Shown: positions 28 through 64,000, counted from the stretch's first letter. The stretch: DNA of 64,000 nucleotides from Reclinomonas americana ATCC 50394 (GCA_048213135.1 PS015120.1:54743-118742), one strand, 5' to 3'. A program made the numbers and translations. Notes: generated from the sequence alone by a model not told the origin.

Positions 28-387
28 CTTATCTCCACGCAGCACTTTCCACTTGGCAATTGTGCCGCGATTTGGTGCCGTTGGTCGTGAGGCAAACGAT
101 CGCCACTGCAAGGAGAGAGAAGAGAGAGTGAGACAGAGTGAGAGCGACATTTCCCCAAGTGACACACTCACACGCACACACGATGAATGCACGCTCTTTC
201 TCTTACACACACAGGAGGAGAGGTACCACAGCAGCTGCTCTCTCTCCATCTTCTCTCTCTCTCTCTTTCACACACAGATGAGATGCGCAACTTGCTGCCA
301 CAATCCCACTGACTGATTCGATCTTGTTGCAACTGTTGCCACCTGCGCTTGTTGTACGCGCGCGCATAGCCGTGCGAGCGCCTGCAT
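28..387 (-). CDS. MRPL24: Mitochondrial ribosomal protein uL24m, 5' exons (387-292 and 105-28); continues off the left edge
   Basis: ATG at 387 gives an Arg/Ala/Gln-rich presequence-like peptide (MQALARLCARVQQ...). After a GT-AG intron, exon WRSFASRPTAPNRGTIAKWKVLRGDK matches the W-x-I/V-x-R-G-D-x-V start of the uL24 KOW region and ends at AAG|GTGAG. Confidence 0.75.
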
Positions 388-706
388 TTGCGTACGCGTG
401 AAAGTGTGAGAGAGAGGTTGTGGGACAGCGTGGTGTCCTCTCACTCTAAATCGTGGTGAAAACGACGCCCACCTGCCCACTATGTGCAAGATGAGTGCCA
501 ACGTTATCATCGGCATCAAATTCTTCATCGCCATGTGCAATTGCAGCTCTGCGAACTCGTATGCAAGTCGCGACGTCGAGCAATTGACAGTTGCAGCCCG
601 TGTCACTTGTGCCAGCCGCAAGTTCGACTGCGCAAGAAGCAGTGCTTCAAGATGAACATAGTGGCAGTGAGGATGGCACGCGCGCAGCCGCTGCACAAGC
701 GACAAG

Positions 707-1032
707 ATGATCAACGTCGACGTCGAGCATGTTTCACCAAAAAAAGCGCCAGGTTCAGCAGCAGCACGGACGCGCACTATTATCGCGAACCACATCTACA
801 CCACCTTCTTTCCCCCTGCTGGAGACCGGGAGCTCGTATGTGCGCAGGACAGCCGCGTTTTTTTTTGGCGCGAAATCGTTCTTGTTTGTTTCTCTCCGTC
901 GTGTTTAGTTGATGAGTGCGATTGAGCACGCTGTGGCGCTTCTGCGGCTGAAAGTGCAGGGAGCACTGGCGAGACATTCGCATGTGAATGCGGCGTTCTT
1001 GGCTGACAAGTTGGTGTCGTTGACAACAGAAG
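707..1032 (+). CDS. CDC16: Anaphase-promoting complex TPR subunit CDC16/APC6, 5' exons only (707-835 tentative, 909-1032)
   Basis: Exon 909-1032 (not in the ORF track) reads LMSAIEHAVALLRLKVQGALARHSHVNAAFLADKLVSLTTE|GTGAG, resembling the CDC16 N-terminal LR..V......Y.SA.F.ADKV.SL motif. The rest of the gene is not found after the gap. Confidence 0.6.
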
Positions 1033-59368: not shown

Positions 59369-59414
59369 CCCGTCTCTCTCTCTCTTTGTGCCCACACACT
59401 TCTCACGTACGCAG

Positions 59415-62400
59415 GCGTTCTGATTCGACCACATGCGACTCGGGCGTTCCGTCGCAAGTCGCCAACACCTCATGCGCTTCCAATGTCAAGGCAACAATCG
59501 GCGCACTGTGTGATGGGCAGCCGTCGTGCTCGTTCCTCGTCAAGATCTCGTTCCTCGGCGATCCGTGCCCTGGGACGTACAAGGTTGGTGGTTGTGCAGG
59601 GAATAGGAGAGACAGATACAGCCACAATGACAGGCGCAGAGTATCAGCCCTCACTCACTCACCTCGTCATCAAACGCAGTGGCTCGACCTGTCTTACTCG
59701 TGCCTCTCGGCATCATGCGTCGGTACGTTCAGCGTAACACGGTCTCCTTGTCGCAGCGTCCTCCTCCTGACTCTTCGTGTGCGCAGGGTGCTCGCGGAGC
59801 CCCCGCACGTGTCGCTACAGCTCCGGCGGCGGTGCCTTTGTTAATTTCCGCCCGCAATGCAGTCTGACGCAGACCGCCAGCACCGTGTTCGCGGCGGGCG
59901 CCGATCGCCTGACCGATCAACTCGTCTTGTCCTACATGGTGGACTCGCAAGGCACCAACAATCTCTTCTTCCAGTTGAGTGACGCGAGTGGAGGAGCGGG
60001 CGCACTGCGCAATGTGCAAATCACCGCCACGTCTCCGACCGGTGTCTTTCCGATCCGTGACAATGGCGCCTATGTCACCGCCGTGTCGAATAGCATCGAG
60101 ACCGGCACGTTTTTTGGCGACGGATTCTCAGGTCTGTTCTGTCGTTCCCAGCTGGGAGCGTGTGTGTGCGCGCTCGTTCAACAAACTCTGACCCATCACA
60201 CAGCCACCGTCATCACTAATTATCTGTGGCTGGCGAACCAATACGACGGTGCGGTCATTGGCCCGCTCAATCCCAATGCACCGCACTGTTTCCAATTCAA
60301 CGTTCTCGGTGAGTCTGTTCACTCTTCGCCTCCTTTTGTGAATGTGTGTGTGTGCCTCCGTGTCTCACTGCGCGTGTTGCAGGTTCCGGACAAAGTATAT
60401 CGGGTGTGTCCATTCTCGACTACACCACCGGCAGCGCCGTGGCCACGAGTGTGACGCTGGACGGACTGCGAATGTGCTGCGATGCCAGTTGCGGTGGTGA
60501 TACTCTTTGATCATGGTGACACCTTCACGTCGACTCACACTTCTTCGCCCGCAGCGCCATTCACTTCCGCCTTGCCAACCAATACCGCCTGGACCAACAC
60601 CGCCTTTACCATCTCATTTGTGTGCTCTGGTTCGCCGAAAATCCCGCTTGCGCCACTTTTGCAGCTCTCCTCTCATGCGGAATCTACGCAGGTGGTTGCT
60701 TCAACACCGAGGTCGAGCTGTGGGTGGTCGACACCACGTCGGCCACGCCGGCGGAGTTCTTTGCCGGTTGCCTGCCGACTGGTGTCGACTGCACAAACCC
60801 GGCTGCCGTACACACGTTGCAGTGGCCGGTCGGCAGCTCGGTGATACCCTCCAGCGCCGCAAATGTGGTGGTGCGCGCCGAGAACTACGACTTTGTTGTG
60901 GACACGATTGTTATTCGAGCCACCACCATTGCCGCTGTTGCCGCTCCGCTGATTGTCATTCCACAAAATGCGGCATCGCTGTCGGTGGGTCATCCTTTGC
61001 GCACGCATGCCAGTGTCGCATACCTCTCCCGTCTCACTCTGTCACCTGCAGTGGTCGTGTACGAATCCTGCCATCACTGCGGTCAAAATCGAGCTGACGG
61101 GCAGTGCTCTGCCGTCGCCGCCCGAGACCATTGTTGCCAGCCTTCCAGTCACGTGTGGAGCCACCACGCCACAAACCAATACGTACACGTGGACGCCGCG
61201 TGCANNNNNNNNNNNNNNNNNNNNNNNNNNNNNNNNNNNNNNNNNNNNNNNNNNNNNNNNNNNNNNNNNNNNNNNNNNNNNNNNNNNNNNNNNNNNNNNN
61301 NNNNNNNNNNNNNNNNNNNNNNNNNNNNNNNNNNNNNNNNNNNNNNNNNNNNNNNNNNNNNNNNNNNNNNNNNNNNNNNNNNNNNNNNNNNNNNNNNNNN
61401 NNNNNNNNNNNNNNNNNNNNNNNNNNNNNNNNNNNNNNNNNNNNNNNNNNNNNNNNNNNNNNNNNNNNNNNNNNNNNNNNNNNNNNNNNNNNNNNNNNNN
61501 NNNNNNNNNNNNNNNNNNNNNNNNNNNNNNNNNNNNNNNNNNNNNNNNNNNNNNNNNNNGCACGTGTGGTGCCGGTGCCTCCGGCACCGTCAACGTGGTG
61601 ACGTGGACCGTTCCGCTGGCCACGCCACTCGGCACCGCCCTCACCCTGTCGGTCATCGATGACGCCGACGGCACCATTGCAGCCGCACTCACCGGCACGG
61701 TGGACGTGGCCGACACCGCCACTGCGCTGTCGATCGCACCGCTGGTGTCGTCCGTGGCCATGAGCGGCAGCTCGTACACTGTACAAATCTCGTGTCGCGC
61801 CAACAGCCAGTTGGTGCGACCAGAGGTGTGGATGCAGGGTCCGTCGGTACTGCAGCGGGTGATTGCGTTCTCGGCGGCTCTCTCGTGCCCGACGCAGACG
61901 GTGGTGTGGACAATACCGCAGACGCTGGAGGCTGATCCAGCGACTCTGATTCTGCGCGACGGCGATCGGCTGTCGGTGCCCCTAGTCAGCAGTGCATCGT
62001 TCCGACTGCTGCAGGCACGCATCTACGACGTCGCGGTGTCGCCGCTCAACCCACTCACCGGCAACAACACGATCACCATTCAGTGGCGCTGCAGTGACCC
62101 GCAGACCACCTCCGTTTCACTGATGGTTCCGGCGTCACCATCGGTCCCCATTGCCTCGCCAGTCCCCGTGGCGTGCGGCATCTCCTCGCCAGCCCTGCAA
62201 ACGCGCACGTGGACCGTCTCCAGCCTGGCCGCCGGCTCGTGGTCAGTGCGTATCACGGACCTGTCGCGCTCGTGGCTGTACGGCGACAGCAACACATTTA
62301 CTGTGCCAGGTGATTTTCCTTTCCGTGCACGGTCTCAGCGATGTGTTCTCAACAATTCTCTCTGCAGCTGCACAAATCTCTTCCGTGATTGTTGCGCCCG

Positions 62401-64000
62401 TCTCCACCTCGGTCATCTATGCTGGCGCTGGCAGCACGATTGCGTGGCGCTGCTCGTCACCGTCTGTTGCGTCTGCATGTATTGACATGGGTGCTGGCGC
62501 CTGCTTTTCACCTCTAACTTCTTCGTGTCCATCTGGCAGACGACCTCGGTCACGCTGACTGTGGCCGACGGCATCACCATTCCATTCGGCTCGCCGTTGA
62601 TGATTGGCACGGCGGCAGCCTCATGCGACTCAGTGCTCCTGCACGACAAGCTCAACGTGTACAACTGGACACCGGACACTAGCACACTCGGCGCCAACTT
62701 TGTGGTCACGGTGGCCGCTGGAAGCGTCACCGCCTCATCTGGACATTTCACCGTCTACAAGCGCAGTATCACCGTGTCCACTGCCTCGTTGGTCGCCGTT
62801 TACTTGGACTACCCGCTGCAAGTGACGTGGACGTGCCAATACGAGGGCACCACAGCGGTCGACATCCTCATCACGGATGCCGTATCCGGTTCCACGTTGG
62901 CCACCGCCGTGTCCATGTATCCGACCACGTGCGCCGCGCTCAATCCCACGACGCAGACCTACACGTGGAGTAGCGCAAGCAGCGCGCTGCTCAGTGGCTC
63001 CGCAAATGTGATTCTGGTGGTGCGCGATTCGTCCGACGGAACCGTCGTTGGGTCGTCCACATCGCTGCCGGTGCGCAAGGCCATCTCCAATGTCACGGTG
63101 CCGGTGGCGTCGCCGCCGAGCATCGCGGTGATTGGTCGCAGTTACACCATCACCTGGCAGTGCGACAACAATCTCGGCGGTACCACACTGGCGACTCTGG
63201 AGGTCCTCCTTGTGCCGGCCACAGGCAGTGGCGGAACCGCGGTTCGCGTGGACTCGCTGCCTGGCGCCGTGTGCTCCGGCTTCCCGTCGTACCGATGGAC
63301 GGCCTCGGCAGCGTACACACTCGCCGCCACCTCCTACGTGTGGATGGTGCGAGATGCGGATCGACCACTTGCGGGCCGCGCTGTGTCGTCGCCATTTACG
63401 TTGACAACGGGCGTGACCGGCGTCATGGTGGCGCCGATTGCGCCTTCGGTGGCTTTGGTGGCCGCTGGAACGGCACGCCTGTCGTGGAATGTTGCGCGCC
63501 TTTTGGAGTGCTTTTTTTCTCTCGGCGTGTGTGTGTGTTCACTCACCCGTCGTCATCGCGCACTACAGTGTTTCGATCCGGCAGTGTCCACCGTGCGCGT
63601 GACTCTGCTGCGGCAAGCACAAGCGTCGCTCTTCCTCGGCCAGTTTCCGAGTACGTGCTTCTCATCGGGTGCCGCCAACACGGTGACAATCAGCCTGCCT
63701 GTTTCAGCTGCCTCGCCCAGCGCCACATTCACCGTGGCAGATTCGGTCGTGGCTTCCGTGTCGGCAACCTCCGGCTCCATGGTCATTTCCGGTACGTAGT
63801 GGCATCACGGTAACATGCAAAATGCGCGTTCACTTCTTGACTACTGGTGACACACACAGCTCCGAGCGTTGTTGTGGTCTCGGTTGCGCCAGCTGCAACT
63901 GTGTACGCCTGTTCGACTTGCACTGCCACGGTCACGTTCTCGTGCAACACCGGAGCTGGTGTGGAGCTGCTGCTGGATCGCGGCGGACTGTTTACGCTCA
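59415..64000 (+). CDS. Large extracellular protein segment: SUEL/galactose-rhamnose lectin domain followed by the same Ig-like repeats; partial at both ends
   Basis: C...IGALCDGQPSCSFLVKISFLGDPCPGTYK|WLDLSYSC has the SUEL lectin signature. Later repeats (IQWRCSDPQTTSVSL...WTV...VRITD...SNTFTV) match those at 30-43 kb. Confidence 0.8.

Follow-up and report, generated by a model that had tools for sequence, protein, structure and literature searches.

The stretch of DNA considered here, hereafter the window, comprises 64,000 nucleotides (nt) of a draft eukaryotic scaffold from Reclinomonas americana ATCC 50394 (GCA_048213135.1, PS015120.1:54743-118742), interrupted by 14 assembly gaps that amount to 5,805 N altogether. 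Its GC content is about 0.52, that of the third codon positions in its long open frames is about 0.7, and short GT-AG introns are predicted densely throughout. Among its genes are TAPT1, UTP14, a glomulin-like gene, a tandemly triplicated gene, and several very large repeat proteins (Table 1). The subject of this report is the 5′ splice site, or donor, of the introns in these genes: roughly one quarter of the predicted introns begin not with an ordinary donor such as GTGCGT or GTGAGT but with GTTGCG, usually extended to GTTGCGT, and as far as sequence alone can show, this motif is a real and frequent donor class. All joins described below were placed from reading frames, homology or paralogy within this one 64-kb window, and sites are named by the first G of the intron and, where needed, the strand.

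Introns were predicted with an exon-chaining gene model that was self-trained on the window. Even with flat splice signals, the model returned GTTGCG as the top donor hexamer (5 of 68). Viterbi training with a single donor matrix did not converge, which points to a mixture of donors; kernel-smoothed 5-mer training locked in noise, and a score that ignored the donor failed to separate GT from decoy dinucleotides in the vicinity of true introns. For an unsupervised mixture model, 62 intron loci were set from their coding flanks and the quality of their acceptors with no donor motif used, each locus was allowed one site among all of its in-phase GT candidates, and only intron positions +3 to +8 were scored. 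Two components emerged, GTGcGT with a weight of 0.66 and GTTGCGT with a weight of 0.34, at a log-likelihood of 75.5 versus 36.5 for a single component. When the gene model was then equipped with the mixture donor score and a retrained codon table, it predicted 95 introns, 21 of them with GTTGCG donors, and it recovered, without being given them, 19 of the 26 GTTGCG sites that had been listed in a first-pass annotation of the window (the sites missed are 291, 9625, 19376, 8493, 25640, 47688 and 63491). Resolving strand conflicts left 85 introns, to which 25640, 25506 and 9625 were added, with 63491 taking the place of 63531. Manual acceptance rested on frame or homology for 25640, 63491 and 9625 and on paralogy for 19376, an intron that the gene model had merged into a longer one and that stays outside the resulting table of 88. 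In this curated set of 88 introns, 23 (26%) carry GTTGCG, mostly as GTTGCGT, and 65 carry other donors.

At all 26 listed positions GTTGCG is present on the strand given, and, as had been described, the conserved G of these donors sits at +6, one base beyond the +5 G of ordinary donors. Counted by itself, the hexamer shows no enrichment in the window (79 copies versus 66.3 +/- 8.6 in shuffled sequence, with 7 of 100 shuffles reaching 79), so the test must be a positional one. GTTGCG accounts for 79 of the roughly 8,400 GTNNNN sites in the window but for 23 of the 88 predicted introns, and this disparity, together with the weight found by the unsupervised mixture, bears out the earlier claim that the class is abundant. 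Over both strands there are 32 GTTGCGT heptamers, of which 19 are predicted donors and 3 are sites known from the earlier list only; the remainder are 2 non-donors in sense orientation, 5 antisense copies, and 3 copies outside confident genes. The predicted-donor fraction of the ordinary hexamers is 11/84 for GTGCGT, 7/77 for GTGAGT and 6/42 for GTACGT (9-14%). Since T stands at +7 in 22 of 27 donor copies of GTTGCG versus 10 of 52 non-donor copies, the motif is properly a heptamer.

Several of the joins restore conserved protein motifs, in agreement with what the first reading of the sequence had proposed. In TAPT1, the junction codon T/TT at 24896 encodes the F of a Y-x-F-V-H spacing common to the homologues (a slash marks a boundary or join), and the join at 25640, PLACL/LTRVLGETL, gives a gap-free alignment with the Euglena transcript protein P0001. 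In an NHL-repeat protein, the join at 49889 yields LYVAD[T]GNSLIR, which matches copies that the same protein carries uninterrupted, VYVADTGNNAIR and IVADRGNNRIR, while LVA[D]VSNSRIR at 45947 fits the NHL motif. When the tandem paralogues at 11378 and 19376 are aligned, the called intron diverges and contains a 16-nt indel, and the exon indels are of 6 nt. In the middle paralogue, the homologous position has GC in place of the GT of the GTTGCGT donor, and the intron has a 16-nt insertion; this copy either belongs to the class in GC-AG form or is dead. Frames, homology and repeats alike put the exon end directly before the GT. Moreover, no other in-phase GT lies within 45 nt at 5 of the 23 sites, and none with a +5 G at 14 of the 23. 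Most of the 25 donors originally proposed are thus backed by the gene model, by frame, by homology or by paralogy, while 291, 8493 and 47688 found no such backing.

The 3′ halves of the GTTGCG introns are ordinary, like those of the other introns. Median length is 70 nt (67 nt in the others), GC content is 0.55 (0.53), a branch-like CT[ACG]A[CT] motif occurs in 18 of 23 (41 of 56), and a C occupies intron position −3 in 21 of 23 (49 of 56). Across the predicted introns as a whole, the acceptor follows an alternating C-R-C-R-C-A-G pattern (for example CACACAG or GCGCAG), a CTCAC-type branch-like motif is found in 30% of intron tails versus 6% of background windows, and runs of (CA)n sometimes adjoin the acceptor, as in the intron at 50676-50769. 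Two unrelated GTTGCG introns, 9558-9625 (-) and 39487-39544 (-), have in common a 13-nt stretch, ACTCACCGTCGAT, around the branch-like site, which could be chance or an extended branch-site preference.

Another property of the class lies on the exon side. Recounted at the 26 listed coordinates, the last exon base is A at 10, T at 10, C at 5, and G only at the ambiguous site 41548, which agrees with the A, C or T given earlier for the other 25. Exon bases were never scored by the models, so statistics at position −1 are unbiased, and among the curated introns a −1 G precedes 1 of 23 GTTGCG donors versus 43 of 65 others (Fisher p = 2e-7) and versus 5 of 11 exact GTGCGT donors (p = 0.008). A split of donor counts by the −1 base had been proposed as a check, and for the 88 predicted donors it gives G to non-G counts of 21:7 for degenerate GTRHGY, 8:0 for GTTYG, 5:6 for exact GTGCGT, 1:22 for GTTGCG and 9:9 for the rest, so that by these class counts −1 G anticorrelates with the strength of intron positions +3 to +6. 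When the exon ends in A, C or T and the donor is not GTTGCG (22 cases), the hexamer used most often is exact GTGCGT (6 cases). A sub-class of the form GTT(C or T)G(T, C or G), in which +3 is T while the +5 G is kept, is found after an exonic G in all 8 of its members. In the phase-1 introns of the repeat proteins, whose similarity of position was judged by eye from the flanking peptides, degenerate donors accompany split codons whose first base is G, and GTTGCGT or GTGCGT accompanies those whose first base is A, C or T.

A precedent for donors displaced by one base exists in human genes. In the shifted register described by Roca and Krainer (2009), as summarized by Tan et al. (2016, PMC4856993), a site reads /GUU followed by the consensus, the base pairs with the U1 small nuclear RNA (snRNA) are moved by one base, and the cut is made at the GU. 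The human shifted sites and the class in the window have the same layout, a GU followed by the consensus one base downstream. Among 201,541 human sites, however, all validated non-canonical registers jointly make up 1.5% (PMC4856993), whereas the class in the window, known from sequence alone, constitutes about 26% of the predicted introns, has a near-invariant heptamer, and, unlike the human shifted sites as they are described there, is the donor mostly adopted by exons with a final A, C or T.

We give about an even chance to the proposal that donors of the form H/GTTGCGT, where H is A, C or T, are likewise recognized by U1 pairing that is shifted by one base, with the cut made at the one GU that is present. 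A T in place of the +1 G turns the local ideal heptamer, G/GTGCGT, into GTTGCGT. When distances are counted from the local consensus GGTGCGT, which serves as a proxy for the U1 5′ end, all 23 GTTGCG donors are at a distance of 5 in the normal register, while in the shifted register, over the whole donor set, 19 donors are at a distance of 1 and 5 at a distance of 2. By the better of the two registers, 52 of the 88 donors have at most one mismatch versus 286 of the 8,400 GT sites overall. During recognition, U1 would pair with GTTGCGT one base out of register: the first G of the intron would face C9 of U1, the usual partner of the exonic −1 G; the U at +2 would be the single mismatch; and UGCGU at +3 to +7 would pair as +2 to +6 normally do. 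In the later catalytic steps, cleavage would fall at the only GU, which lies one base upstream of the point implied by the U1 register. A single 7-nt template used in two registers, with about one mismatch tolerated, would cover the whole donor repertoire; exons ending in G would take degenerate donors (GTGAGT, GTACGT, GTTCGC and others), and exons ending in A, C or T would need the exact GTGCGT or, more often, GTTGCGT. GTTGAGT, the shifted analogue of GTGAGT, is absent among the predicted donors, which fits a need for perfect GCGU once one pair has been lost. This absence, combined with the preference for GTGCGT after non-G exon bases, suggests GCGU as the best-pairing core, and such a core in turn suggests a U1 5′ end with G opposite +4. 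The model therefore predicts that the U1 5′ end departs from the universal sequence toward a closer fit to GGUGCGU. In duplex folding with such a matched end, which is hypothetical, A/GUUGCGU adopts the shifted register at -9.1 kcal/mol, equal to A/GUGCGU at -9.2 kcal/mol.

Several considerations count against this proposal. The GTTGCG copies that are not donors are also poor in G at −1 (4 of 52; window-wide, GTT is preceded by G in 250 of 1,499 cases), and because these background copies likewise seldom follow G, the class is best described as lacking the usual selection for −1 G rather than as strongly avoiding it. The earlier phrase that GTTGCG donors are almost never preceded by G is therefore right as a count and overstated as avoidance. 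The missing G could also stem in part from compensation between exon and intron, and not from the pairing register. We infer splicing at the GTTGCG sites join by join from the DNA, and boundaries shifted by one base at both ends would be compatible with the protein-level evidence, although such a shift is unlikely because the conserved CAG would then sit one base inside one quarter of the introns. The share of the class in the census may be somewhat inflated, as the donor score used there already held a GTTGCGT component. The universal U1 5′ end pairs with GUUGCGU at only -1.2 kcal/mol in any register, compared with -5.6 for GUUGAGU, a motif that is absent from the predicted donors even though it would pair better, and it pairs poorly with GUGCGU too; given such weak pairing, the model requires that the U1 end be non-universal or that other factors assist, and the end used in our pairing model is hypothetical. 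Finally, after U1 leaves, the G at +6 and the U at +7 would still be one base off for the usual pairing with U6, and a bulge may be needed then.

The first-pass annotation had instead suggested routine bulged pairing or a variant U1 or U6 snRNA. In a bulged duplex, U1 keeps its usual pairs with G at +1 and U at +2, one U at either +2 or +3 is looped out, and the GCGU of +4 to +7 takes the place normally held by +3 to +6; we consider bulged pairing unlikely. Such pairing would form as many base pairs as the shifted register and would suit U6, which must fit the extra base anyway, and duplex folding does pick the bulge if the −1 base is G. Single-base bulges at +2/+3 have been validated in human cells (PMC4856993), where the group numbers 68 predicted sites, 54 after curation (PMC4856993, Table 3; cf. 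Roca et al. 2012), and, like the class in the window, its members have an extra U beside the GU and a conserved G moved from +5 to +6. As described there, however, the human bulged sites keep the −1 G contact, which the window class is without. A bulge leaves C9 of U1 free, so that an enrichment of −1 G would be expected like that of the other donors (43 of 65) or of those with exact GTGCGT (5 of 11), and the energy cost of the bulge should make a −1 G needed more, not less. Since −1 G stands in only 1 of 23 cases, we prefer the shifted register, and the suggestion of routine bulging calls for revision.

Less likely again, in our estimate, is that a variant snRNA serves this class, either a second U1 or a U6 variant whose pairing stretch is fully complementary to GUUGCGU, with the standard U1 reading the rest. 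A fully matched guide would be expected to give just such a motif, with seven bases perfectly conserved and no preference on the exon side, the universal U1 end pairs poorly with GUUGCGU, and differing U1 5′ ends within one genome have been described for the diplonemid S. specki (PMC12621601), a protist precedent for lineage-specific U1 5′ ends. The donor logos given for diplonemids in the same source are G/GTATG or non-canonical, unlike the GTGCGT and GTTGCGT of the window, and the introns of Diplonema papillatum are described as long and sparse, at 1.6 per gene (PMC10161547). No snRNA gene, and hence no positive evidence for a variant, turned up in the window (no Rfam match at gathering thresholds and, at E <= 1, only weak microRNA-like ones); furthermore, one template in two registers already covers all donor classes, and the 3′ halves are the same in both groups of introns.

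An explanation that we consider improbable is that exons not ending in G lose a contact with U5 and U1, and that GUUGCGU is simply the strongest intron signal available to compensate, acting through U6 or through LUC7 or U1C proteins. It would account for the trade-off seen above, in which the degenerate donors stand mostly after a G (21:7 and 8:0) and the exact motifs after another base (5:6 and 1:22). Two balanced classes of 5′ splice sites are described in plants, animals and yeasts, one leaning on the exon side (U5 loop 1) and one on the intron side (U6 ACAGA), and left- and right-handed classes are described in connection with LUC7 (PMC9803359, PMC11732430, PMC11842720). The trade-off between −1 G and the intron motif is alike in both systems, but the two classes in those accounts use one register, whereas the intron-side class of the window is mostly displaced by one base. 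Compensation leaves unexplained why the motif should be the consensus moved by exactly one base, and why an extra-strong G/GTTGCGT should be nearly absent when G/GTGCGT is common (5 of 11).

It is very improbable that the class is an artefact of mis-called joins or pseudogenes with the real donors elsewhere, for although the joins come from home-made gene models, the census donor score already held the motif, three listed sites (291, 8493 and 47688) are no more than putative and two are ambiguous, the motif emerged both unsupervised and with flat signals, heptamer occupancy is strand-specific, homology, repeat and paralogue checks back the joins, and most sites are without a usable alternative donor.

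Other known intron types were considered and rejected. U12-type introns have as their hallmarks an RTATCCTT donor and a TCCTTRAC branch site, and they are ruled out here by the GTTGCGT donor and by a CTCAC-type branch motif and CAG acceptor that are as in the other introns. Introner-like mobile introns are excluded because a non-repeat 9-mer is common to only 8 of 253 pairs of GTTGCG introns versus 33 of 1,540 other pairs, and the words in common are branch-site-like. The non-conventional introns of euglenids and hemistasiids do not fit either, as all ends here are GT-AG and the ends of an intron pair with each other no better than with permuted partners (-5.96 versus -6.17 +/- 0.33 for the GTTGCG introns and -4.54 versus -5.24 for the others). 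We found no description of GTTGCG(T) or GUUGCG as a donor class in the literature, a search that did not cover supplementary files, and organism-specific reports may exist.

As to the genes themselves, TAPT1 is matched best by a transcript protein of Euglena gracilis (39-61% identity over aligned segments) and UTP14 by fungal proteins (37-42% identity); by these sequence identities neither is close. A metagenome scan with a TAPT1 exon as the query found no relative, and Pfam searches of further exons gave no usable match for extra join checks. The repeat proteins at 32100-59000 (-) and 59400-64000 (+) are rich in Ser, Thr, Ala and Val and contain IPT/TIG, NHL and Kre9/KNH-like Ig domains; their introns are mostly in phase 1 and lie at apparent module boundaries, a pattern expected from exon shuffling. 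On the (+) strand at 3248-7850, long low-complexity Ser/Leu/Pro "ORFs" (open reading frames) are the antisense of the Lys/Glu-rich UTP14, and they are miscalled as genes, with a spurious GTTGCGT "donor" at 3448+, when the codon model has been trained on the genes for surface proteins. In the C-terminal exon of UTP14, at about 3334-3405 (-), a 72-nt stretch that is in frame and free of stops (AGG/GTGAGTGG ... AACAG/) is absent from the fungal homologues; it is probably an intron, which an ORF scan would take for coding sequence. Within a 192-nt TAPT1 intron, at 24450-24623, lies a long inverted repeat of a purine run and a pyrimidine run; it has weak microRNA-like Rfam matches far under gathering scores and is probably a mere hairpin-forming microsatellite pair.

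Table 1. Genes, predicted GTTGCG introns and related donor sites in the window (positions counted from its first letter; coding flanks are the coding signal on the two sides of the intron).
Feature	Position	Strand	Length (nt)	Phase	−1 base	Basis and remarks
TAPT1	~24.6-25.9 kb	+				homology
UTP14	~3.2-7.9 kb	-				homology
Glomulin-like gene						Pfam search of exons
Tandem triplicated gene	11-20 kb					paralogue alignment
Very large repeat proteins with IPT/TIG and NHL domains	32-64 kb					
Doubtful GTTGCGC site	286..291	-				no clear acceptor; unspliced frame hits a stop seven codons on
GTTGCGT intron, UTP14	4318..4394	-	77	1	A	gene model; region unconserved in homologues; one in-phase alternative, a/GTGGGAA, at +15
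GTTGCGT intron, UTP14	7470..7548	-	79	0	A	gene model; no in-phase alternative bearing +5 G
Putative GTTGCGT site, probably 5′ untranslated region	8493..8582	+	90, to CACAG acceptor			flanks without coding support; intron-like layout, pyrimidine-rich, CTCAC
GTTGCGA intron	9558..9625	-	68	1	A	manual; links 246-codon and 69-codon open frames; ACTCAC branch-like motif 20 nt before CAG
GTTGCGT intron, tandem paralogue copy 1	11320..11378	-	59	0	A	gene model
Middle tandem paralogue, homologous donor GCTGCGT	15384..15609	-				aligned with 11250-11480 and 19250-19478
GTTGCGT intron, tandem paralogue copy 3	19318..19376	-	59	0	A	paralogy with 11378
GTTGCGT intron, TAPT1	24896..24963	+	68	1	T	only in-phase GT
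GTGCGT intron, TAPT1	25506..25570	+	65		T	manual; exact GTGCGT after non-G exon end
GTTGCGT intron, TAPT1	25640..25694	+	55	0	C	homology; CTAAC branch-like motif
GTTGCGT intron	28549..28607	+	59	0	T	gene model, retrained codon table; weak support with the first codon table
GTTGCGT intron, domain boundary of large repeat protein	34733..34809	-	77	1	C	gene model; strong coding flanks 13.5, 10.4
GTTGCGT intron	36352..36420	-	69	1	C	gene model; strong coding flanks 11.9, 12.3
GTTGCGT intron	39487..39544	-	58	0	T	gene model; coding flanks 10.9, 19.9
Ambiguous GTTGCGT site	41350..41548	-	77 or 199		G	three tandem in-phase GTs; acceptor uncertain
Ambiguous GTTGCGT candidate, beyond the earlier list	43607..43683	-	77	1	A	gene model; strong in-phase rival g/GTAAGTA 33 nt downstream, the only such case among the 23
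GTTGCGT intron inside NHL repeat	45877..45947	-	71	2	A	NHL motif
GTTGCGT intron	46446..46515	-	70	0	T	coding flanks 16.1, 11.3; no other in-phase GT within 45 nt
Putative GTTGCGT site just after assembly gap	47688..47761	+	74			ACTCAC and GCGCAG present; only 16 known bases upstream
GTTGCGT intron inside NHL repeat	49820..49889	-	70	1	A	repeat copies; Pfam NHL on adjoining exon
GTTGCGT intron	50264..50326	-	63	0	T	gene model; coding flanks 10.2, 10.1
GTTGCGT intron, (CA)n run up to acceptor G	50676..50769	-	94	1	T	gene model; no other in-phase GT
GTTGCGT intron	51121..51191	-	71	1	C	no other in-phase GT; coding flanks 17.1, 12.7
GTTGCGT intron	58117..58179	-	63	2	C	gene model
GTTGCGA intron	58249..58322	-	74	2	A	gene model; in-phase alternative a/GTACGAC at -24
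GTTGCGG intron	60488..60554	+	67	1	A	gene model
GTTGCGT intron	62466..62539	+	74	0	T	no other in-phase GT; coding flanks 10.7, 12.1
GTTGCGC intron	63491..63568	+	78	0	T	manual; coding flanks 12.8, 12.3; gene model chose a GTGTGTG donor 36-40 nt downstream instead
GTGCGT donors after non-G	6791-, 40831-, 55251-, 56293-, 57351-, 25506+				non-G	
G/GTT(C or T)G sub-class donors	23911+, 38393-, 29736-, 50469-, 60630+, 37815-, 51387-, 19907-				G	

Shifted and bulged registers of U1 are so far known only in the form of rare human exceptions, proven minigene by minigene, whereas about a quarter of the introns would use such a site here. If the shifted register is correct, these introns would offer a natural system in which cleavage regularly falls one base away from the point that U1 recognizes, and in which one could study how the spliceosome fixes the cut site with U1 one base away and ask how U6 copes with the extra base. 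They would also show how coding constraints at the ends of exons shape the choice of donor. On the practical side, gene finders that use a single donor matrix will mis-call GTTGCGT introns, and single-matrix training failed to converge in this window for the same reason. Should RNA data confirm the class, it would be of interest to specialists in splicing. A bolder variant holds that a second U1 or U6 dedicated to GUUGCGU would constitute a third splice-site system beside the U2-type and U12-type. The more general reading, which we hold to be a credible possibility a little short of an even chance, is that a non-canonical U1 register may have become a routine second mode of starting an intron in this lineage, with one template used in two registers and the shifted one serving most of the exons that do not end in G.

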